Positions 18,564-32,889 are shown, counted from the stretch's first letter. The stretch: 64,000 nucleotides of DNA from Mobula hypostoma (GCF_963921235.1 NC_086097.1:143966001-144030000), one strand, 5' to 3'. The notes: generated by a model from the sequence alone, not told the origin. Numbers and translations: made by a program.

Positions 18564-19068
18564 CACTTGGGTGATTTCACACATATATGATATTTCCTCA
18601 GATCCCCTTCTTACACAATAGGTCCAAAAGTTATTTTGGACACTCAGTTCCCAGCTACCCATGATTAATAGATCGGTTACTGATGTAGTAAGTGACTTGT
18701 CTCTATCCAGTCTGCAAGCTTCTTGAATTAAGCAATTTAGCAAGCATTGTCTGTTTTGAAACAAGCCAAATTAAATAACCCATTGTCCTACACTGCACCT
18801 TTTGAGCAGCAGTAAACCAGATGCAGTGACCAACAAGCTTCTTTCTACAGGCAATGCAACTGCTCCGTTTGAGAACTCAATTACAAATCTGCTCCATAAA
18901 CAGTGTTTTGTTTTATCGTTGAACTGATTACTGCTAGCCATTTACCTTTTAAAAAGCAAAGACAGGCTCCCATTTATGACCAGAAGCTAAACAAAGCATA
19001 TAGTTGGAAGTTTAACTTACACTGTTTGATCTTGACAAATGGCAGCTGCTGTGTTAGTGAGTCGAGCT
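18564..19068 (-). repeat. 3' LTR remnant (U3 part) of the foamy-like provirus
   Basis: Direct repeat of 27646-28479 (excluding the 27821-28132 insert), roughly 80% identical by eye; R/U5 lost where the RTE fragment abuts. Confidence 0.8.
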
Positions 19069-19929
19069 TGGCAAAAATATGGGGCCTCCAACACATCCTT
19101 CTTGCTAAGCAAAGATTTCTAACCCAGCTTCTTTCTACAACTATCAGCTTTGAGGTCAAGACTCCTCTTGGGACAGACTGTCACTCCTCGTACCGTTCCA
19201 GTAGGTTAGCAGTTTTAGTGAAGCTCTCTTTGATATGATGCTCAAAGAACTCATTAAGTCCTTTCCAACGTATGGGTATCTGTCTGATGTTCTCATTAGA
19301 GTGCTCCTCAATCTCAGATGCACACATTTCCTAAATCTCAAGAAAATGTTACCATTATAATATTCCATAAACACACGACAAGAATGCATCATACTGGGCC
19401 ATATTTAAGATCTTCTTCCACACAAACAGTTCTTGTAATTTCCTTGATGCAAAGCAGTCGTATGAGAGATGACCCATGATAAGTAAGGGAGTTAAAGGAG
19501 TCTTAGGAGTGGAGCCATTATACAAAAATCAAAAGCCAACTTCCATCTTTGCAGGCTTCAACAGTTCAACACAAGGAGCATTATAAAAACAATAATTACA
19601 ACGCTAGGAGAACTTTCCATCAGAAAACTTCAAAAAAAAATCTGTAATCCAATGTAAAGTTGTGTCAATCCACCCAGAAACTGAAATCACTGCTGCAGAA
19701 GGTAAATTTACAAGCCATTGTTTCAATTAGAGTATTCAGTCAGCCAGAAGCTTAGAATGAGTCTGCAAAAGAAACCAGTGAAAGAAGCTGCCTCATTCAT
19801 CTGATTGTGTCAGTTCTATTACTCTTATAATATAGAGAGAAATATTCTTTTAATTTTACTGTGTTTCTTCAAGTCATTGTAGACAAGTATCAAGTCCTTC
19901 TAGAATATTCTTTGTTGCATCCATCATAA

Positions 19930-20285
19930 GTTGAATTGAATTGAATTGAATCAACTTTATTACTTACATCCTTCATATACACGAGGAGTAAAAATCTCTA
20001 CATTACGTCTCCATCTAAATGTGCAATATGAAATTACGGTAATTTATAATAAATATTATGTACAACAGGTTAGTCAATATAACAGTTGTGTCAGCATGAA
20101 TCAAGTAGTCTGATGGCCTGGTGGAAGAAGCTGTCCCGGAGCCTGTTGGTCCTGGCTTTTATGCTGTGGTACCATTTCCCAGATGGTAGCAGCTGGAATA
20201 GATTGTGGTTGGGGTGACTCGGGTCCCCAATGATCTTTCAAGCGCTTTTTACACACCCTGTCTTTGTAAATGTTCTGAATAGTGG
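19930..20285 (-). mobile_element. Rex1/Babar-like LINE 3' end inserted in the provirus
   Basis: (ttgaa)n at 19931-19950 followed by gaagaagctgtcccggagcctgttggtcc-type 3' sequence. Confidence 0.7.
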
Positions 20286-20759
20286 GACATTCCTTAAAAC
20301 TGGACTTGCATTTCTGTCTTGAAGATACTCAACATCAAGTTACTCCAAGACTCATTTCTTCTATAAACCTTAAAAAAGGGTGATCTCTGATAGCAGTATG
20401 TCTGCATAACTTTAGTTATGAGAAATATCTGCATTTCTAGTGAACTTAGGTGCCATTACAAGAGTGAGCACTGCCAAGAGTTGGCTGTACAGGCACTTTT
20501 CCTCTAATATGTTTCAAAAATATCATGGAACTGTATTAGGGCAGAATCGTTCTTTTCTGCCTGTTGATAATATAATCATGCAATTGAATACACGGCACTA
20601 ACTAAATGCTTGCCTGTGTATTTAACATTGTTGATTTGGGAAGTAATGTTATCTGTGTAATCCAGAAACTTAGCGTTACCAGTTTGTCTCCAACAATAAA
20701 ATTTGTAATGGCTTGTTTCTCCATTTCCAACTTGTTGTTGAAGTCTCTGTGAGATGTAC

Positions 20760-21270
20760 AGTGGATTCTGGTTGACTGGTCCATCTGTTAATCAGCGTAT
20801 TGGCTATTTGCAGCAACTCTAAAAGAACAAAAACTAATTGATAAAATAGTTGGGATTCCCTTCATTTATTTTGGGACATTATGCTGCTTAATTGGGACGG
20901 GAGACCATTTCCAAACAGTTTCTGACTAACATCAGTTGCGTGTGTTTGTGTTCAAAAAGCAGTGATTTTTGTCACTGATAGTTGGCGAGAAATAAGCAGT
21001 AAGACAATTTAGAATTGTTTTGCTCACTGCAGTTTCAACTATTCAGGCTTGGAAATGCCAGAAATGATTTCACTACCTCAGCAGGTTAGGAACAATGAAG
21101 AACTTGAAAGTATCGACAATCATCTTGATTGCCACAATGAAAATGAAGATTTGGAGAATGTAATTGTCAAAAACATTGTATAAAGGTAATCCATTATCTG
21201 CACTGAGTGTCTGCACTAATTTTGTTCATTTACAGTCAAACAAAAGAACATCATAATGTGTTGGTTATCT
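20760..21270 (+). mobile_element. Tigger/pogo-like DNA transposon fragment
   Basis: TA + CAGTGGATTC terminus; acidic transposase C-terminal remnant EELESIDNHLDCHNENEDLE. Confidence 0.55.
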
Positions 21271-21464
21271 GTATATCCAACAATTTTAGTGAAACTTGTG
21301 CTGGAGATTTCTTAAAGTGTAAAGGGTGTTGCATTGAGACAGTTCAACTCTCACTCTTTTCAGATCTAAACATGTATTTTATTGTTTCAATACATCTTAC
21401 TCTCGCCCCGTTCCTGTCAGGGTTCCATGGTGGACCCAGGTACTGGTCTACATAAGGCTTCCAC

Positions 21465-23894
21465 TCATTCTAGGGGGATGAATTCTGCTAGGGCAGGTTT
21501 GATGTTATCTATGGAGAGAGTTTTACTTAGTCTTGTTTCCTCTTCTGATCTTGATTACGACAGTGAAAAGTATTGATAATCTAGGCAATGAGACAAGGAG
21601 GTTTTCAGGATGGAAACCAGGGTTGGAATTATTTTTATGGAAGTTCTTTCTTTGGACCAGTCCCCTTTTTGTGTTTTCCAAACTGTCTTGTTAGGTTCCT
21701 TCTTAAGTTTCTCTTAAATTCCCATAAACCCACTCAATTCCTTGAGAAGAGGGGTATAAGGTATAGGTGATGATTGGCCTGAGTTGGTCATCAGAGGTGC
21801 ATTCTTGTGTACTCCTATTTTTGCAATTGGCACTTTGTTTATGGACAGTTGCACTTCAGTGACACTAGTAGTCTACTTTGCCTCTGGAGTAGACCAATCC
21901 TTCCAGGCCTCCTTAATCACCTGATTCCTTCGCTCCACTCTGCCACTTGATTGTGGGTGGAATGGAGTGCTGTACTCCACTTGTCTGCCTGTCTTTCCAC
22001 ACATGGCTTGACAGACTTTACCACTGAAGGAAGACACTCTGAATGCATGTACGCAGGCAGGGGCGCCAGGAGTTTTGGAGTGCTGGAGTGCTGTGACAGT
22101 TGTGGTCTCACTACAAGAAATCATGGAAACTAACCATGTATATCCCGTGCAAAGATTAATTATCAAAAAATATACCTATTAGGTTTCCCATAAAGTGGGT
22201 GCCAGAAATGGGCCCATAATCATTTTGGCACGGCTGCATTGGTGCAGTTGGTATTGTTTCTTATAGCAGGTGGCCTTGTGACTGCTCCTATCACTCAACA
22301 TGTAAGGCCACCAGTATAATGTAGTTAATTTTGCATGAGTGGCTTCTCCGCCACCACGATTGTGTTTGAATCCTCGGTGGCCTTCTTGAACTGGTGCTTC
22401 CTGCTTGTGGGCAGGATGTATTTGCTTCTTTTTTTTATCTAGGCCAACATACCCAAATGTTGCCCTCACCTTCAGCTTCATATTTGTACCATGTTGGAAA
22501 TCCTTTTGCATTGAGTGCAGTAGTATTGAGAAGAATTCTTAAAACATCATCCAGGTTATTTTTTATTTGTTGCTTAGTTACCACCAAAACCCTGCCTCCC
22601 TTACCATAGTAAGATCCATCCCAACAGAGGCCTACAGTATGTCCCAGGAAGTGTAACACCTGCACTAATGGTTTAGTCAATAATTCATAAGCATTCTTCC
22701 ACGTCAACAAATGTGGAAGTACCTTACCTCTCTGTCTTCTCCATCTAGTAATTCATCAGACAGAAATATCTCTTTCTACTGCACTCCTAACAGAATAAGA
22801 ATCAGTACATAAAACCATAAGATATAGGAGGAAATTAGGCCATTCGGTCCATCGAGTCTGCTCTGCCATTTCATCATGGCTAATCAATTTTTCCTCTCAG
22901 CCCCAATCACCTGCCTTCCTCCAGTATCCCTTCGTGTCCTGACATATCAAGACCGGTTCTGTTGCATGTCCTTGTTTTGGGCTTTAACCTCTGAAAAATG
23001 AGCTGTATGATTCCCTAAAGGATGCTCTTGCACTCCTGTGGTTCAAATTCAGTTTCCGATAAAAGTTTTCCTTTTATAATCGGGAGCAGAGATTATAATT
23101 GAGTGGGTCCATCTTTCTGGATTTTCGTTACTGATCCATCACGGTAATATATCTGAGAATATTGCTCTAAAGGATGTCGTGCTATATTAGGTCATAGAGA
23201 AGATGGTTCTGCACCTTCCATAATGATTGTAAGTCATAGCTCTCAGGAATGCATTCCCACTTTATAGCGTCATCTTGTAAATTTATTTGCTTTTCCTCTA
23301 TTTAGATATGGTAACTCCCTGGTTATTTGTTTATAATTTGCTATCATTTTTCAAAGATGCAAACTCTATTTGTATAATAATTGGTTTATCCCTTCGCAGT
23401 GTCTTACTGTAATATGTGTATAGGTAGACACTATTCTAAGGCAGTGAATTTCTGTTCTGTCAGGGTGAAATCATGTGAGACATAGTGCATGGGGTTTGTG
23501 TTTCTTCTCCCTCATTATGGCAGTTCGCTACAGAGGTTTTTGAAGAACCAGAAATTTGCAGAACAGGAAATTTTATTGGGTCTCTTGTTTGGAGGTCTAT
23601 TGCTAGATGAACTGCATTCAGCAATTCCTCTAATGCCTCATACAGTAATTTTCTGTGGGAAAAACAAAAGGCTTTCTAGATACCTTTGTTTGTTTGTTTA
23701 ATCCCATATATCTGTATGGGAACATCATAAATCAGGCATTCTACCTCGTTTCCATGTATGCCTACAATATGAATTTTCACTGTCGGCTCCTTTAGATTAT
23801 CACCTTGACTAATATCGGAAATTAGCATTGTAACATCTGCACCTGTATCAAAATGGTAGGGTCAAATTTTGCCCAAAATATAAGCTTTTGGCAT
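21465..23894 (-). pseudogene. pol: Foamy-like pol (PR - RT connection - RNase H - IN); RT palm deleted
   Basis: PR YHFDTGADVT (DTGA 23838-23849); connection PMHYVSHDFTLTEQKFTALE; RNase H HPLEQYSQIYYRDGS and PLGNHTA (23001-23021); IN NLDDVL..KGFPTWYKY, EATHAKLTTLYWWPYM, TGYTWL, YSTPFHPQSSGRVERRN, SIDNIKP (21495-21515). Confidence 0.9.
22811..22952 (-). repeat. CR1 3'-tail fragment inserted in the RNase H region
   Basis: aaccataagatatagg..ggccattcgg tail, same family as 3235-3380. Confidence 0.75.
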
Positions 23895-24779
23895 ACGGAA
23901 AGGCGAGACTAGATGTGTCTATGTCCTATTTGTCAGATGGAGCATTTTGAGTAGAGTTGTTGTTGAAATTCTCCTCTGCCATTTTTATTACATTAATGTT
24001 GGCCTTCCCCTGCTTTACATTTTGATTTCTCTGAGCTGCAGGGGAGGGAGTGGACATTTAGGATGGGCCCTGTCCCCTTGTACGGTATATTAGAGGGTGA
24101 AGGATAAGACGGGCCATGATGTGTCTATCAGGAGTGTTTCTACTCTTCTCCATAATATCAGTGGGGCCTCAGAACGTTCCCTCTGTCCTGGAAGGAGTAT
24201 CTCATTCTAAAACTTCCTTCCGCAAAGAGAGGGGGATGGATCTATAGGTTGTGGCCTATACCTTGCGACTACCCATCCAGTTTATGGGGGAATATCTCTT
24301 CCGAAGGCAGGCGATCTTCAGGGAACTTGTTTGGTTTGTTGATTACATCTTCTCTGCTTAAGGTCTAATGTAGGAGGATGCTGTGAATGTGATCGACCCA
24401 AGGAATGAGGATGTTGTGATGACTTTGCTACTGTCCCTACTTCCCTGTATGGAAAAGATGAGAACCCTGTGCCAGCACCTCATTGCCCTTGTGTGGGAAC
24501 AAGTGGTAATCCTACTACCACCGAGTGGGATCACAAGATCACTTCAACAACCTGAAATCATTCATGTGTTGGGTGTTGATTAAGTGCTGTTCCACACATT
24601 GTGCAGACATTTTCACAAGGATAATGATGGAAGAAGACTGCATCAGTGAACAATGCTATCAAAGGCAACGTCCTCAAAGATGGGTTATGCAGCAACTCTT
24701 TGCACTCCTTTTATGTCTTCTTCTTATTTCCGATGTGGTTCTGCTACTTTTAGAGCTTGTCCTCTACACTCTAGCAGTG

Positions 24780-25522
24780 TGATTTCAGGCCGATCAGGTG
24801 ATCTTGTGCTTTGCTGTCCCGAGAGTGTTCCACGAGGCTGCAACCAAGAGTGCAGCATAGAGGCCAGGGAGTTAGGAGACAGGGCACAGGCCATGAACGA
24901 CTCCATCCCTCGCCGATCTTACTGATTAAAGTGCCGAGGAAGATTGAAATCCTCGAGGTGATGTGGATGGCGAGTGAGTGTTCAGCGCCATCTACCAGCT
25001 TCTGGCTTGCTGCTGCCAGAGAAGATGTCTGTCAGTGGGCGGTCTCTCACTCTTTCTCGCTTACTGCTCCTGAGGGAAAGTCCTTGCATTCGAGTGATCT
25101 CTCCCTCATTCGATGCTGTCGACGGAAAGTGCCTGAGCAAGGTTTAATCGACGTGGACTGTAGATTTGGACTCAAATTCAGGTTTATGATGTGTTCTAGT
25201 TTCTAGTTCTAGCTTTGGTCACTCTTTGTTTCTACTTTTGGGCAAATTTTGAATCAGGGCAGCCTGCAGATGATGATCACTGAGCTGAACTGTACTGAAA
25301 TATGCCTTGTGATTTTGTGTTTTATATTCTGTAGTTTTCACCATCTTTGTTACTATTTGCACAATTTGTTTTGCACGGTGGACAGGGAGATGGGTTTATT
25401 ATTCAATATTTTTTGAACAGTTGTTTCCATGGTTCTTCTTTGTTTTGTGACTGTCCATGGGGAAGACAAATTTCAGGGCTGTATACTGCATGCATACTTT
25501 GATAATAAATGTACTTTGAACA
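24780..25522 (+). mobile_element. Non-autonomous element with Rex-type 3' tail inserted in gag
   Basis: Ends aataaatgtactttgaa; splits the Gag CA-like reading. Confidence 0.55.
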
Positions 25523-25797
25523 TTATAGAATGAACTACAGTAGGTCCCAGTCTGTTCTTGCTAGTTGTTCTCTGATCTTATAAACTGCTATTAAGCCCTG
25601 GCTTTCAATTATTTTACTCAGTACAATATTAACTCCTCTACATACATCTCCACCGTTAATTTGTTTATAAATGCACACATCTATCTGATGTGGATTTTCA
25701 CACTCGTGTGGAGGTGGTGCCAAGGCTATGGGAAATAACCTGAATATGAAGAAGGAGAAAGCCCTTAACTCCAAGTAGAGTCATCGGGATGCTGTCA

Positions 25798-25962
25798 CGA
25801 TGGCATTTTTTTTTTAGCAGGCTTTCTTATTTTTACGAGGCCAAGTTGCTAGCACGAGGCTCGACCCAGCACGGATGGAAAGCGTGCAAGGGAGCCGGCT
25901 GGATTCGAACTCGGGAGCCTTCGCTCCGAAGTCAGGCGCTGATGCCACTACGCCACGACGCT
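25798..25962 (-). repeat. tRNA-derived SINE (second copy at ~57198-57400, +)
   Basis: Box A TGGCGTAGTGG and box B GAGTTCGAATCC on the minus strand; CpGs retained. Confidence 0.8.
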
Positions 25963-26879
25963 TAATATGAACTGCTGAATATGTTGGGGAGTACAACTGG
26001 CCTGAAAGCCTGCAACCCCCCCAGCTTTCTTAAGTAGCCAGTTCAGAATTTGTTCAGCTTCAGCTGGTGGTGTGGTACATACTGCCTGCAAGCTCTCAAT
26101 AGTCAAAGGTCTGAAACTTGATGGGAAGCTTGTACCAGGAAGCTACAGTGGTTCCTTGTACAGAAACTTGTCTCGGTATTCTTCTTTCACTGGCTATAGT
26201 TAATCTTTTAGTAATTCCAGTGCATGTTCCCAAACATCTGTTCTCCAGGCCTCATTAGTACCTCTAGGGCAGAGGACCCTAACTTGGGTTCCTCAGACCC
26301 CTTGCTTAATGCTATTGGTTATGGCATCAAAAAGGCCGAGAACCCCTGCTCCAGGGTTTACTGATGTGGCTGTTACCTCATATATGCCTGGAAGGAGTAC
26401 ATGATATCCCCGTGCATTGGGATTAAGATATGAGTCACCAGGTTCTATCACATAAGCATGTGGCCCCCATTTGGGTGCTTGGTTTCTATCCAAAAAAGGG
26501 CCAATTTATTATCTCCAGGCATGAATCATTGCCACATTGTTGGGATATGTTACAAATTGTGATGGTCTGAGTCTATCAGGTCATACAGCAGGGGTTGGTC
26601 TGTCTAATCTGCATCCTAATCTATGCTCTATCCCTTCATCATTCCAGTCTCTGACTTGAAGAATTTAAGGAGCAGTCAGGACATTATCCCATATTTCTGC
26701 TATATTATTAATACACTCATAATATTAACCAGCATTTGCCTGTGCAACTACTGGAAACCAGGAAGGCTACCATGTTGTAATACTATGTGGGGTGTCACAG
26801 CACTTGCTGAGCATGCTCAGAGTTTTACTTCTGCTAAATAATAATTCTTTCTAAAAATAATACTTGTGGTATAATGTGA

Positions 26880-26894
26880 CCACATTGGGCACCA
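26880..26894 (-). promoter_or_regulatory. Primer-binding site, tRNA-Lys1,2 type
   Basis: Minus strand TGGTGCCCAATGTGG equals TGGCGCCCAACGTGG with two CpG-type transitions; this is the foamy-virus primer. Confidence 0.85.
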
Positions 26895-26896
26895 AC

Positions 26897-28480
26897 TATG
26901 ATGGTGTTGGTTTTGTTGACCATGAACGTCTAAACTCAAATTAAGTTGTTAAGCCCTAAGGGAGATTATATTGTAACAATCTTCAAAGACTAGTTCACTT
27001 CCCTGTTTCTTCTCCATGGCATGTTTAGCTGCCAATAGTCATTATTTGAGTGGTGGGTCCCCTCTTCCTAACAAGGAGAAGATACTTCCAGCTAACAAAG
27101 TAGTTTAAAACACAGTTCATTTATTTTCAGTGATGCAGGTTTAAACCCAAACAACATTCTTAAAACACATTTAAAACTTACAGAGTATTTCCATCTTTTA
27201 AAACATTTCTAAATTACAAACCATTTCTAACACACAAAGTATTTCTAAAACACAAAGAATTTCTAAAACACAGGTTCAATTTTTATAAACTAAAAAGATA
27301 TATCAAATGATTTCTCCGTCACAGAAATTGACGTCAGCGGAATGGATTCTAGTGAACCCCATGTTTCTTTCATGCTTCTTAATGTTCTTTAACCATTCCT
27401 AATAACCCTGAACTACTCTCTACATTTATACGCAAACAACAGGAATTCTGCAGATGCTGGAAATTCAAGCAACACACATCAAAGTTGCTGGTGAACGCAG
27501 CAGGCCAGGCAGCATCTATAGGAAGAGGCGCAGTCGACGTTTCAGGCCGAGACGAAGGGTCTCGGCCTGAAACGTCGACTGCGCCTCTTCCTATAGATGC
27601 TGCCTGGCCTGCTGCGTTCACTCTACATTTATACAGTTTCTTTGTCACTTGGGTGACTTCACGCGTATATGATATTTCTTCAGATACCCTTTTTTACACA
27701 AAAGGTTTAAAAGATTTTTGGAGACGCAGTTCCCAGCTACCCACAATTAATGCTATAAAGCTAACTTCCTTGAGTACATAAAACTTCCTACTTATTAATG
27801 GATCAGTTGTTGATACGTATTGGGTGGCAGGGTGGAGATACATTTCTACCAAATGTGTAAGATGCTCCTTCCTTCCGCTAGCCTGCAGATCACCCTTGGG
27901 CAAGGGTAACACCTGCTTTGCCCCCTGATCAGGCTCACTTGAAGCCATGGGAGCAGGTGGTGGATGGTTGTGTGAGCAGCTGGTGCATATCACAAGTCCT
28001 GGTTATGCAAACCCTGAAGCCAAGCAGACAATCCATCCATCTTGTAAAGACACTGCCCAGAAGGTGGCAATGGAAAACCATTTCTGTAGAAAAATTTGCC
28101 AAGGGCAATAAGGGTCAATGAGGCCATGACTGCTAAGTGATTTGTGGTCTACAAGTTTCTTCAAATTAAGCAACTTAGCCAGCACTGTCTGTTTTGAAAC
28201 AAGTCACACCAAATAATCCATTGTCTTAAACTGCACTTCTTGAGGAGCGATAAACCAGGTGCCATGACCAACATTCTATTTTTTAAACAGACAATGCTTC
28301 TTATTTGCAAAGCTGCTCTATAGACAGTTCTTTGTTTCACCTTTAAACTGATTATTACTTTGCATTTACATTTTTAAGAGATGAAGACTGGCTCCCGTGT
28401 CAAAGCATATAGTTGGAAGTTTAACCTACAATGTTCGATCTTGACAAATGCCAGCTGCTGTGTTTAGAAAGCAGAGTTTG
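26897..28480 (-). repeat. 5' LTR (U3-R-U5) of the foamy-like provirus, containing two later insertions
   Basis: Abuts the PBS; on the minus strand: CRE TGACGTCA 27329-27336, TATAAAA 27281-27287, GTAAGT 27176-27181, AATAAA 27120-27125; U3 part repeats at 18564-19068. Confidence 0.8.
27432..27620. mobile_element. Young Penelope-derived insertion with perfect inverted duplication and 14-bp TSD
   Basis: TSD ctctacatttatac at 27418-27431 and 27621-27634; arms 27491-27553 and 27559-27621. Confidence 0.85.
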
Positions 28481-29243
28481 CCCCCTGACCCAGGAAGCAA
28501 ATATCTATCACACTCACACCGCTAACAACCTTAGCTTGATTCTTATGATAAGTTGCTACTTATGTGGAGTTTGTGTGTTGCCCATGTGACCATTGTAGAT
28601 ACCTCAGATGCTCCAGTTTGCTCCCCCATCCCAAAGCCATATAGCTTGGTAGATTAACGGTGGACTCTAAATTACAATTTGGGCATAGGTAAATCAAGGG
28701 GTGCTGATGAGTATCTGGGGGAAGTTACCATGAAAAGAACGGTGGAACGTGAATGATGGAATTGCTCTGACAGCTAACACAGGAACGGCGGACTGAATGG
28801 TCTTATACTGAGTTGTAAGGAAACACGTCAAGCTCTCTCCCCCAGAATGGTCAATAATAAGAAAACTGGAACATTGGAACTTTGCAGTAATCATTGATAA
28901 GGAGGGCAGAAGCTAAGTTGCCTTTGCAGATAAATGGAGATAAGATGCTGATCAGTTAAAATCTACTTCAAGGGGAGAATAAACACCAGGAGGTTAATGG
29001 CCCTTTGTGCTGCCTGTTCGTTAAAACTGAGGAGCACAGAAATTTCTTTCCCAAAGGTTAGTGAGTGTCTGCCTCAAGGATGACAGAGGTCAGATCATTA
29101 GATGTATTTAAAGTGGAGAATGGTAAATATATGAAACATTATGGAATTCTGCCACAGGAACGGAGGGCATGATTGCATTGAATGATGAGGCAAGACTGAG
29201 GGGGCTGGAAGCCTACATGTGCCCCTGTTTCCTTACATTCTTA

Positions 29244-29755
29244 CACTCAGTAGCCATTTTGTTAGGTACACCTGCTCGTTAACAGGATTATCTAATCAGT
29301 TAATCACGTGGCAGCATTTCCTATGCATAGTCAAGAGGTTCAGTTGCTGTTTAGCCCAAACATCAGAATGAAGAGGAAATGTGATCCAAGTTACTTTGAC
29401 CCTTGGTGCAAGACAGGATGGTTTGATTATCTCAGAAATTAATGATCTGTGATTTTCATGCCCAACAGTTTCTAGAATTTACTTAGAATGGTGTGAAAAA
29501 CAAACAAAAAACATCCAGTGAGCAGCAGTTCTGTGTGCAAACATGCTTTGCTTTGCTAATGAGAGGCCAGAGGAGGATGTCCAGACTGGTTCAAGCTGAC
29601 AGGGTGACAGTAACTCAAGTAACCGTGGATTACAAGAGTGATGTGCAGTACAGCATCTCTGAACACACAACACTTTGAACCTCGAAGTGGATGGCCTACA
29701 GACGGAGAAGACCACACCAGGTTCCACTCCTGTACTCAGTAAAGTACACTGAGGG
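29244..29755 (+). mobile_element. Tc1-derived non-autonomous DNA transposon
   Basis: TA-CACTCAGT..TTAGGTACAC left end and a degenerate right end + TA; transposase remnant KTSSEQQFC..RGQRRMSRLVQADR. Confidence 0.75.
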
Positions 29756-30567: not shown

Positions 30568-32889
30568 ATAGAAACATAGAAACATAGAAAATAGGTGCAG
30601 GAGTAGGCCATTCGGCCCTTCGAGCCTGCACCGCCATTTATTATGATCATGGCTGATCATCCAACTCAGAAACCCACCCCAGCCTTCCCTCCATACCCCC
30701 TGACCCCTGTAGCCACAAGGACCATATCTAACTCCCTCTTAAATATAGCCAATGAACTGGCCTCAACTGTTTCCTGTGGCAGAGAATTCCACAGATTCAC
30801 CACTCTCTGTGTGAAGAAGTTTTTCCTAATCTCAGTCCTAAAAGGCTTCCCCTCTATCCTCAAACTGTGGCCCCTCGTTCTGGACTTCCCCAACATCGGG
30901 AACAATCTTCCTGCATCTAGCCTGTCCAATCCCTTTAGGATTTTATACGTTTCAATCAGATCCCCCCTCAATCTTCTAAATTCCAACGAGTACAAGCCCA
31001 GTTCATCCAGTCTTTCTTCATATGAAAGTCCTGCCATCCCAGGAATCAATCTGGTGAACCTTCTTTGTACTCCCTCTATGGCAGGGATGTCTTTCCTCAG
31101 ATTAGGGGACCAAAACTGCACACAATACTCCAGGTGTGGTCTCCCCAAGGCCTTGTACAACTGCAGTAGTACCTCCCTGCTCCTGTACTCGAATCCTCTC
31201 GCTATAAATGCCAGCATACCATTCGCCCTTTTCACCGCCTGCTGTACCTGCATGCCCACTTTCAATGATTGGTGTATAATGACACCCAGGTCTCGTTGCA
31301 CCTCCCCTTTTCCGAATTGGCCGCCATTCAGATAATAATCTGTTTTCCTATTTTTGCCACCAAAGTGGATTATTTCACATTTATCCACATTAAATTGCAT
31401 CTGCCATGAATTTGCCCACTCACTCAACCTATCCAAGTCACCCTGCATCCTCTTAGCATCCTCCTCACAGCTAACACTGCCACCCAGCTTCATGTCATCC
31501 GCAAACTTGGAGATGCTGCATTCAATTCCCTCATCCAAGTCATTAATATATATTGTAAACAACTGGGGTCCCAGCACTGAGCCTTGCGGTACCCCACTAG
31601 TCACCGCCTGCCATTCTGAAAAGGTCCCATTTATTCCCACTCTTTGCTTCCTGTCTGCTAACCAATTCTCCACCCACACCAATACCTTACCCCCAATACC
31701 GTGTGCTTTAAGTTTGCACACTAATCTCCTGTGTGGGACCTTGTCAAAAGCCTTTTGAAAATCCAAATATACCACATCCACTGGTTCTCCCCTATCCACT
31801 CTACTAGTTACATCCTCAAAAAATTCTATGAGATTCGTCAGACATGATTTTCCTTTCACAAATCCATGCTGACTTTGTCCGATGATTTCACCGCTTTCCA
31901 AATGTGCTGTTATCACATCCTTGATAACTGACTCCAGCAGTTTCCCCACCACCGACGTTAGGCTAACCGGTCTATAATTCCCCGGTTTCTCTCTCCCTCC
32001 TTTTTTAAAAAGTGGGGTTACATTAGCCACCCTCCAATCCTCAGGAATTAGTCCAGAATCTAACGAGTTTTGAAGAATTATCACCAATGCATCCACTATT
32101 TCTTGGGCTACTTCCTTAAGCACTCTAGGATGCAGACCATCTGGTCCTGGGGATTTATCTGCCTTCAATCCCTTCAATTTACCTAACACCACTTCCCTAC
32201 TAACATGTATTTCACTCAGTTCCTCCATCTCACTGGACCCTCTGTCCCCTACTATTTCTGGAAGGTTATTTATGTCCTCCTTAGTGAAGACAGAACCAAA
32301 GTAATTATTCAATTGGTCTGCCATGTCCTTGCTCCCCATAATCAATTCACCTGTTTCTGTCTGCAGGGGACCTACATTTATCTTTACCAGTCTTTTCCTT
32401 TTTACATATTATAAAAGCTTTTACAATCCGTTTTTATGTTCCCTGCCAGTTTTCTCTCATAATCTTTTTTCCCCTTCCTAATTAAGCCCTTTGTCCTCCT
32501 CTGCTGAACTCTGAATTTCTCTTCGGGTGAGCCACTTTCTCTGGCTAATTTGTATGCTTCTTCTTTGGAATTGATACTATCCCTAATTTTTCTTGTCAGC
32601 CACGGGTGCACTACCTTCCTTGATTTATTCTTTTGCCAAACTGGGATGAACAATTGTTGTAGTTCATCCATGCAACTCTTAAATGCTTGCCATTGCATAT
32701 CCACCGTCAATCCTTTAAGTGTCATTTGCCAGTCTATCTTAGCTAATTCACGTCTCATACCTTCAAAGTTACCCCTCTTTAAGTTCAGAACCTTTGTTTC
32801 TGAATTAACTATGTCACTCTCCATCTTCATGAAGAATTCCACCATATTATGGTCACTCTTACCCAAGGGGCCTCTCACGACAAGATCGC
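30568..32889 (-). mobile_element. Young 5'-truncated CR1 LINE
   Basis: (tttctatg)n tail at 30568-30590; near-intact ORF2 with one frame break near 32400. Confidence 0.95.
30666..32345 (-). CDS. CR1 ORF2 reverse transcriptase domain, 559 aa open frame (TE-derived, partial)
   Basis: KSPGPDG, NYRPVSLTS, QHGFVKGKSCLTNL, YLDFQKAFDKVPH, GVPQGSVLGP, KFADD. Confidence 0.85.
   Translation of the reverse strand: MIMGSKDMADQLNNYFGSVFTKEDINNLPEIVGDRGSSEMEELSEIHVSREVVLGKLKGLKADKSPGPDGLHPRVLKEVAQEIVDALVIILQNSLDSGLIPEDWRVANVTPLFKKGGREKPGNYRPVSLTSVVGKLLESVIKDVITAHLESGEIIGQSQHGFVKGKSCLTNLIEFFEDVTSRVDRGEPVDVVYLDFQKAFDKVPHRRLVCKLKAHGIGGKVLVWVENWLADRKQRVGINGTFSEWQAVTSGVPQGSVLGPQLFTIYINDLDEGIECSISKFADDMKLGGSVSCEEDAKRMQGDLDRLSEWANSWQMQFNVDKCEIIHFGGKNRKTDYYLNGGQFGKGEVQRDLGVIIHQSLKVGMQVQQAVKRANGMLAFIARGFEYRSREVLLQLYKALGRPHLEYCVQFWSPNLRKDIPAIEGVQRRFTRLIPGMAGLSYEERLDELGLYSLEFRRLRGDLIETYKILKGLDRLDAGRLFPMLGKSRTRGHSLRIEGKPFRTEIRKNFFTQRVVNLWNSLPQETVEASSLAIFKRELDMVLVATGVRGYGGKAGVGF

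Follow-up and report, generated by a model that had tools for sequence, protein, structure and literature searches.

Foamy viruses are set apart from other retroviruses chiefly by the way in which they express Pol. Their accessory genes are located between env and the 3′ long terminal repeat (LTR). Mammalian foamy viruses translate Pol from a separate start codon on a spliced RNA (PMC3705302). Foamy-like endogenous retroviruses (ERVs) are known from the elephant shark (CmiFLERV; PMC5512871), the small-spotted catshark (ERV-Spuma.0-Sca; PMC10699275), teleosts (AciFLERV and its kin; PMC5512871, PMC5210030), a newt (NviFLERV-1) and the coelacanth (CoeEFV). The arrangement of gag and pol in the same frame across a stop codon is the layout of gamma- and epsilonretroviruses and of XtERV-S, a class III element of Xenopus (PMC8278194). 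Here, we describe a decayed foamy-virus-like provirus, located at positions 18564-28512 on the minus strand of a 64,000-nucleotide stretch of the ray Mobula hypostoma genome (NC_086097.1:143966001-144030000; hereafter the window), together with the ERV family to which it belongs.

The gene order on the minus strand is LTRs of a 1.1-kb type, a primer-binding site (PBS) of the tRNA-Lys type, gag, pro-pol, env remnants and a post-env remnant. The provirus encodes no functional product today; the locus is dead, deleted and one of hundreds. We consider it likely that this dead provirus stems from a foamy-clade retrovirus that colonised germline cells of an ancestral ray in a single brief burst, and that the virus was enveloped and probably complex, expressed Pol by readthrough and spread in trans. 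A fuller statement is put forward tentatively, as one that may well prove wrong in some part: that no member of the foamy clade had been described from a ray before this one, which is also among the oldest, that it combines a spumavirus Gag with readthrough in the manner of murine leukaemia virus (MLV), and that it spread through the germline as reciprocally deleted genomes relying on shared proteins.

In the window copy, a single TAG stop (23926-23928, minus strand) separates gag from the protease, and the two genes lie in one frame across the family. The comparison is based on sibling loci (L-numbered; 20 fetched from 40 scored) found in the 3.48-Gb, 200-contig genome. The border codon is TAG in 6, TAA in 2 and a sense codon in 5 of 13 copies, among which the window copy and its neighbour L012 are not independent; of 20 further loci, 19 were scorable, with TAG in 11, TAA in 4 and another codon in 4. 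A stop is thus present at the border in 23 of 32 copies, against a background of one stop in 416 neighbouring in-frame codons. The catalytic Asp of the protease lies 75 nt past the stop, in frame, in 6/13 and 9/15 measured copies, the others having small indels or no anchor, and no in-frame Met occurs between the stop and this Asp (19 of 19 copies). Because the frame of L015 is open from the Y-x-x-R motif in the Gag tail through the border codon, the border frame is the gag frame. About 22 codons upstream of the stop, there is a V-N-V site similar to the p3 cleavage motif of foamy viruses (PMC5210030). Since gag and pro share one frame with one intervening stop and no Met before the Asp, readthrough is the likeliest mechanism of Pol expression. 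Gag would be translated from the genomic RNA and Gag-Pol by occasional readthrough of the UAG codon, as in MLV and XtERV-S, whereas mammalian foamy viruses use a spliced pol mRNA. Judged on the DNA layout, the property that defines Spumaretrovirinae, a Pol made from spliced RNA with its own start in another frame, is lacking. The original prediction of a spumavirus proper does not hold in this respect; the ray element appears foamy-like in priming, integration and Gag, and departs from Spumaretrovirinae in the expression of Pol.

With mammalian foamy viruses, represented by feline foamy virus (FFV) Pol and by structures of prototype foamy virus (PFV), the family shares the order of protease (PR), reverse transcriptase (RT), connection, RNase H and integrase with its N-terminal extension, an RT of the YVDD type, the Gag central domain, the Y-x-x-R motif, the lack of a Cys-His box, a Lys PBS, a 4-nt target-site duplication (TSD), a long LTR and room for accessory genes after env. 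In contrast to these viruses, its gag and pro share a frame that is interrupted by a stop, and its pol has no separate start; it lacks matches to the Spuma_A9PTase and Foamy_virus_ENV families, and is present as hundreds of germline copies; its RT, which carries the YVDD-type motif in siblings, is only about 39% identical to foamy RT in these decayed copies.

CmiFLERV, compared by description only, is likewise a foamy-like ERV of a cartilaginous fish, but only pol is reported for it (PMC5512871), whereas the ray family has LTRs, a PBS, gag, and env-like and post-env parts. ERV-Spuma.0-Sca, also compared by description, is a multi-copy ERV of the spuma class with 293 elements. Its gag and pol are both listed in frame 3, without remark in the available part of PMC10699275, and it may share the same-frame layout; because the catshark table lists the two genes in one frame, this trait may be wider in sharks and rays. 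ERV-Spuma.0-Sca has an LTR of 866 nt, a gag of 2259 nt and an env of 1326 nt that ends 38 nt before the LTR, and the same portion of that source gives no Gag domain and an oldest date of about 36 My. The ray family differs in its LTR of about 1.1 kb, its spumavirus Gag domain and the approximately 1.5 kb after env, and its LTR divergence is 6-7 times that of ERV-Spuma.0-Sca on the same rate. Two named batoids were screened in that study, and in the part available spuma elements are reported from the catshark only. Short motifs from the ends of the ray element matched nothing in the available catshark supplement, where line breaks weaken such a look-up.

The teleost foamy-like ERVs share a Lys PBS two bases past the LTR, a 4-nt TSD and the lack of a Cys-His box, and one member has a p3-like site. 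The PBS motif of AciFLERV and its spacing (LTR end + 2 nt) are those of the window copy (PMC5512871 supplement). This cichlid element differs in its 17-kb length, in a Gag described as without strong similarity to known proteins, and in a pol that starts at the last base of gag and hence lies in another frame. NviFLERV-1 and CoeEFV have, like the ray family, a recognisable foamy Gag and Pol, LTRs of about 1 kb and a putative accessory region. However, the pol of NviFLERV overlaps gag by about 124 nt, the Env of CoeEFV strongly matches the foamy Env family, and the divergence between LTRs or copies makes both elements far younger. In XtERV-S and MLV, a stop divides gag from pol within one frame and Pol is produced by translational suppression, but they lie outside the foamy clade and have simple genomes with a class I env. 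P0001, a 1687-aa Gag-Pol from a 10,956-nt Logan contig, groups with the ray family and FFV in the RT and integrase trees, but consists of one uninterrupted open reading frame (ORF) and gave no Gag_FV_central match at E 0.001. This protein carries a YNLRPR motif, and a single-ORF Gag-Pol is unusual for the clade.

The gag gene (23929-26770, minus strand; 5′ end approximate) is disrupted by stops, frameshifts and two insertions, one SINE-like (short interspersed nuclear element; 25751-25962) and one a host repeat of high depth that siblings lack (24634-25518). Its central (capsid) domain of the spumavirus type lies at 25520-25780 on the minus strand. The window piece matches Pfam Gag_FV_central (PF20672) with an E value of 9e-4 and 19.3 bits, below the cut-off of 30, and the same family is matched in 6 of 11 siblings, in two of them above the curated cut-off. 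The Gag peptides of the original prediction, PPAEAEQILNWL (26070-26035) and VLSKIIESQGLIAVY (25624-25580), are both present. The position of the chromatin-binding-like Y-x-x-R motif, as defined in PMC6669660, lies in the Gag tail at 24188-24202 (minus strand) and is decayed in the window copy; across 13 copies, Y..R is retained in 4, and 6 more have Q or W, which are CpG-decay products of the Arg codon. No Cys-His box was found in three frames of 6 copies, which is weak evidence in decayed sequences. The Gag thus has the central domain, the Y-x-x-R motif and the lack of a Cys-His box of the spumavirus type. A PDB sequence search with the capsid piece gave zero matches. In the leader after the PBS (approximately 26775-26715 in the window, and in 10 siblings), there is a conserved ATG in good context whose frame extends for only about 18 codons; it lies in a different frame from the long gag frame, where no ATG occurs over about 80 codons. 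A segment of about 80 nt in gag (26345-26268) is missing from most siblings and is not repeated elsewhere among the examined loci.

The window copy lacks the RT polymerase domain, and the Pol phylogeny proposed with the original prediction could not be built from its RT; siblings L021, L022 and L026 supplied this domain and gave the foamy grouping. In the RT tree (25 rows; a second RT tree was a quick version), the family, FFV and P0001 grouped together with supports of 100/99. The RT of L026 matched foamy PR-RT structures with 126-133 bits, compared with 37 for the next molecule; the best structures are those of foamy viruses and the next ones those of caulimovirus, human immunodeficiency virus and Ty3. 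Approximately unbiased (AU) tests on a 15-row subset rejected joining the family to the class III control from the same genome (L031/L032; p 0.0027) and to class I (p 0.002), and left the choice between FFV and P0001 as its sister undecided (p 0.108); the sister relation of P0001 to the family had supports of 86/67 in the RT tree and was reversed, with 80/62, in the integrase tree. The integrase tree, which includes the window copy, recovered the family with 100/99 and its group with FFV and P0001 with 99/97. Alignment of the decayed rows used FFV or P0001 as an anchor, toward which the rows may have been pulled; both anchors gave the same RT grouping.

The integrase frame of the window matches PFV integrase with an E value of 6.6e-17 (4.7e-5 for the next-best molecule). 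Among the class I controls, the RTs of L035 and L036 match MLV RT best, yet the integrase of L036 also matches PFV integrase best among integrases (E 2e-27); therefore, an integrase best match alone is not diagnostic, and the integrase likeness offered earlier is not proof by itself. The control L032, which is unnamed and, as is L031, classed as class III by best matches only, has an RT scoring 188 bits with foamy RT and 164 with MLV RT, a margin of 25, whereas the margin of the family is 95 bits. A tRNA-Lys PBS and a 4-nt TSD are both present, and neither is unique to the foamy clade (PMC5210030). By RT, the family is neither a class I ERV nor a Ty3/gypsy element, and placement with gypsy, class I or, at an AU p of about 0.003, the class III control in place of foamy viruses was checked and not found. 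On these data, the family is assigned to the foamy-virus clade, as a foamy-like ERV and not as a strict spumavirus. The RT and integrase trees, AU tests and Gag domain bear out the earlier view of an endogenous member of the foamy clade, and a globin comparison supports a cartilaginous fish, here a ray, as the host. A globin exon from this genome scored 87 bits with PDB 1cg5, a stingray haemoglobin, 61 with 1gcv, a houndshark haemoglobin, and no more than 55 with any other single chain; engineered chains of double length ranked higher only because two copies were summed.

A protein search over 1.84 billion representatives returned 170 proteins at E 0.001. Only two passed 1e-10, namely P0001, an unnamed Gag-Pol (3e-17), and P0002, which is FFV Pol (2.6e-13), and the tail started at 1e-8. 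Pfam searches of whole six-frame translations gave nothing, the matches coming only from short pieces; two word-index protein searches using the decayed integrase also gave nothing, and IMG/VR contained no locus. Other ERVs were encountered in the genome. L031, L032 and L037 form a second, younger class III-like family, with copies about 90% alike and an RT slightly nearer to foamy than to MLV RT. L035, L036, L038 and further loci are class I ERVs with MLV-like RT, whose pol frames are open for 800-1400 codons, which indicates young retroviral invasions in this genome.

The genome contains roughly 200-400 internal copies of the family and LTR candidates in the thousands. First-look candidates numbered 216 each for RT and for the gag tail and protease, 288 for integrase, 397 for the env end and 7543 for the LTR. 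All of the 40 candidates scored per query matched, and these candidates are not copy numbers. The rarity supposed in the original prediction does not apply to this high-copy family, and foamy-like ERVs had already been published for the elephant shark and the catshark; the search of the genome and relatives that it recommended yielded hundreds of internal copies and an insertion common to at least three other organisms. Solo LTRs measure about 1.05-1.13 kb, and LTR ends form an 8-nt inverted repeat. Among 10 solo-LTR candidates, the 4-nt TSD is exact in 4, agrees at 3 of 4 nt in 3 and at 2 of 4 in 1, and 2 were unscorable as aligned. The DNA tree of 23 copies is a star, with end branches of median 0.15, support for 1 of 20 inner branches and pairwise Kimura two-parameter (K2P) distances of 0.23-0.35. 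Substitutions are even across codon positions (0.147/0.134/0.131) without a third-position excess, and there is no sign of selection among the copies. The star tree and the even codon-position differences suggest a single burst followed by neutral decay.

The two LTRs of a provirus differ by 0.227 in the window copy (402 sites) and by 0.252 in L026 (949 sites). In the 4 of 24 listed runs that were compared, contigs covering the locus show that the window insertion is common to at least three other organisms (B, C and D). The 5′ junction is bridged at about 98% identity in organism B and about 92% in C, and in D the junction at 18564 is bridged with internal pieces near 90%. Set against these identities, the LTR divergence suggests that the insertion is 2-3 times older than the deepest split among the three organisms. 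Published rates lie tenfold apart: 0.5e-9 (PMC10699275), a mammalian rate of 2.2e-9 and 2.2e-10 (PMC4422223). The corresponding LTR ages are about 230-250 My, 52-57 My and more than 500 My, the last being impossible for the ray lineage, and CpG decay inflates all three estimates. Published LTR divergences are 0.033 and 0.024 for the elephant shark and 4.4% for the newt. As part of the tentative fuller statement, the family may be among the oldest foamy-clade integrations recorded by LTR divergence, plausibly of Mesozoic age.

Many copies are defective in a small number of recurrent ways. Among 40 loci scored, a set biased toward long matches, 11 end at one place just past the protease Asp, 11 begin at one place just before it, 3 have the break of the window copy, 10 extend past the gag tail into RT and the other 5 follow none of these patterns. 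The class that ends past the Asp keeps gag and also lacks the RT catalytic core, and 10 of 20 fetched loci carry both of these separate deletions; the core is present in only 3 of 20 (L021, L022 and L026). In the gag-deleted class, a short microhomology marks the join between the 5′ end of gag and the protease. The frame is maintained there in 3 of 3 copies, pointing to one ancestral event. This class was also considered as a retrocopy of spliced pol RNA and rejected, since the junction is a short microhomology without GT-AG ends. The idea that the whole family lacks RT was likewise rejected, as RT-bearing copies were found. All multi-copy classes seen keep the PBS, the leader and the 3′ part of pol, and foamy packaging signals CAS I and CAS II lie in the 5′ leader and 3′ pol (PMC3705302). 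The simplest reading of the deletion classes is that defective genomes were copied by means of proteins provided in trans. Such genomes would then account for much of the copy number, the trans-copied classes being one that kept gag without the RT core, one that kept RT without most of gag and that of the window, without any RT. HERV-H is a parallel for the copying of defective genomes in trans.

L012, which lies on the same contig about 510 kb away and on the same strand, is 96-100% identical to the window copy at 24324-23925 and 90-95% identical at 22684-22300, against a background near 79%. The pattern points to ectopic gene conversion between the two neighbouring proviruses on two separate occasions.

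The deletions may have recurred independently, by template switching at microhomologies on full-length RNA and without propagation in trans. This account, which we consider unlikely, bears solely on how the family amplified and does not conflict with the other claims made here. The short microhomologies at the junctions, the fact that the classes are not clades and the 10 of 40 loci that run from the gag tail into RT agree with it, but the occurrence of two separate deletions together in half of the fetched copies would be rare under repeated independent errors. More doubtful still is a true spumavirus in expression, in which TAG ends gag and Pol comes from a non-AUG start or from a spliced RNA with an upstream start and an acceptor at or after the stop. 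Mammalian foamy viruses do have a spliced pol mRNA (PMC3705302), the stop codon ends in AG, is followed by G and could act as an acceptor, and the Gag, PBS and TSD are foamy-like. However, the pol of mammalian and newt elements overlaps gag and has its own start, whereas the ray copies have no Met in the corresponding interval, the 25-codon spacing amounts to a full protease N-terminus, and the gag-deleted class is not a spliced retrocopy.

It is very improbable that the family is a non-foamy class III element of the ERV-S, ERV-L or snakehead-retrovirus (SnRV) type, for which a readthrough layout would be ordinary. The gag and pol of XtERV-S indeed form one frame across a stop (PMC8278194), Foamy_virus_ENV and Spuma_A9PTase are not matched, and a non-foamy class III RT can match foamy RT best, as that of L032 does. 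In contrast, the RT margin of the family is nearly four times that of this control (95 against 25 bits), the AU test rejects their union, and the spumavirus Gag central domain above cut-off, Y-x-x-R motif, Lys PBS and 4-nt TSD are all present. We give scarcely any credence to the idea that the stop arose by chance as a nonsense mutation and became fixed in a master template that originally had a P0001-like, single-ORF Gag-Pol. P0001, among the two closest intact relatives, does have one 1687-aa ORF without a stop, and many templates were defective otherwise, but the stop lies exactly at the gag/pro border, with the V-N-V site about 22 codons upstream and the Asp 25 codons downstream, and is found in every gag-bearing deletion class and in RT-keeping copies.

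Several observations weigh against the preferred reading of a foamy-clade, readthrough-expressed virus that was copied in trans. Readthrough is read from the DNA layout only, and only 2 of 13 copies show significant RNA structure past the stop (z below -2.5), with no structure consistent among copies. The gag start codon was not located. Neither the env nor the post-env region matches a Pfam family, and env is also without a PDB match; Spuma_A9PTase gave no match in the window or L012. The GGGTG motif at the border between the purine tract and the 3′ LTR is exact in 1 of 13 junctions, most of which are purine-rich. FFV is the only named foamy reference in the trees, which include none of the named ERV-L, ERV-S, SnRV or fish foamy-like elements. 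In 3′ pol, the deletion classes do not form clades, as near-fixed differences between them occur at only 2 of 1899 columns, and the retention of 3′ pol is partly circular, the copies having been found by a pol query.

The remaining features of the window copy lie on the minus strand, and the limits of the 5′ LTR, the PBS and the start of the 3′ LTR were set by comparison with the 20 siblings. The 5′ LTR (26897-28512) begins with TGTGAT, ends 2 bases before the PBS and is about 1.1 kb long once two secondary insertions are removed: a host repeat of very high contig depth (27816-28144), absent from the 3′ LTR and siblings, and a SINE-like palindromic sequence (27432-27621) with 31 matches across the window and loci. 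The PBS, of the tRNA-Lys type and CpG-decayed, occupies 26877-26894 (LTR end + 2 nt). The 3′ LTR (18564-19095; K2P 0.227 to the 5′ LTR) is cut at 18564 by a LINE-like (long interspersed nuclear element) sequence, and for this reason no TSD is readable at the locus. Self-comparison pairs 28147-28464 with 18710-19055 (74%) and 27646-27751 with 18564-18669 (85%), and the 5′ LTR exceeds the part that pairs with the 3′ LTR. Of the LTR-PBS-gag-pol-LTR layout proposed originally, the LTR pair and the PBS stand, but the RT polymerase domain is absent, and the env and post-env remnants (21470-19096) had gone unmentioned. At least seven host-repeat insertions lie within the provirus.

In pol, only the N-terminal half of the protease remains (23690-23925), with D-T-G-A at 23849; FFV Pol aa 19-65 align at 23855-23703 with a weak frameshift-aware score of 56, compared with 34-42 for shuffles. 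At 23678-23690, a deletion of about 1 kb, common to L011, has removed the rest of the protease and the entire RT polymerase domain, and frameshift-aware alignment of the window to FFV Pol gave no score above shuffles for this domain. The RT connection (tether) domain follows at 23180-23675, with FFV aa 433-497 at 23633-23434 (score 76; shuffles 30-46). RNase H (22600-23176) is split by a LINE 3′-tail insertion at 22812-22945 and contains HPLEQYSQIYYRDGS (23176-23132) and PLGNHTA (23021-23001). The integrase (21468-22600), with several stops and frameshifts, retains the N-terminal extension, zinc-binding domain, core and C-terminal domain, and contains NLDDVL (22557-22540), KGFPTWYKY (22506-22480), EATHAK (22346-22329), LYWWP (22319-22305), TGYTWL (22148-22131), YSTPFHPQSSGRVERRN (21974-21924) and SIDNIKP (21515-21495). 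All eleven peptides quoted earlier are therefore present on the minus strand.

The env remnants (19487-21470) have lost about 1.1 kb of the surface part and carry insertions at 20771-21355 and 19935-20288. They are collinear with siblings, and their assignment is based solely on position and hydrophobicity; hydrophobic stretches at the N and C termini were judged by eye, the latter near 19680-19560. A genome search with the Foamy Env family gave zero matches, but its control also matched nowhere. The post-env 3′ remnant (19096-19452), assigned by position only, includes a purine tract (19107-19096). This region is about 1.5 kb long in L012, and the 1.2 kb gone from the window copy is present there, while parts of it recur, similarly oriented, in five more copies. 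A search for a central purine tract in the provirus gave no convincing candidate. Because an env-like gene and about 1.5 kb of post-env space are present, the virus would have been enveloped and was probably complex. Just upstream of the provirus, a CR1-like (by eye) LINE ORF2 fragment is open for 580 codons (30666-32408, minus strand), and the window is crowded with related LINE copies. In a run presumed to be RNA, whose coverage was mostly of repeats and flank, a contig of depth 11.9 spans the beginning of the 5′ LTR and the adjoining upstream flank (28342-29400); it may represent DNA or intronic RNA. Elsewhere in the genome, 22 globin exon matches are clustered at G000:C36:102.3-103.2 Mb, an unusually large haemoglobin array.

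In the parts of the literature available, no foamy-like ERV of a ray was found, nor any comment on readthrough within the foamy clade; large ERV surveys, repeat libraries and preprint supplements may list the family unnamed. The family is most likely an undescribed ray lineage of foamy-like ERVs, in agreement with the suggestion first made for this locus. Its interest lies in its age and its readthrough-type junction and not in a single dead locus. The orthologous insertions across related organisms can calibrate the age of the family and the slow neutral rate of its hosts. A spumavirus Gag joined to a readthrough-type junction in the earliest-branching group of jawed vertebrates makes the order of events testable. 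If the reading is true, readthrough would be ancestral, and the spliced, Gag-independent Pol would have arisen later, on the bony-vertebrate side.

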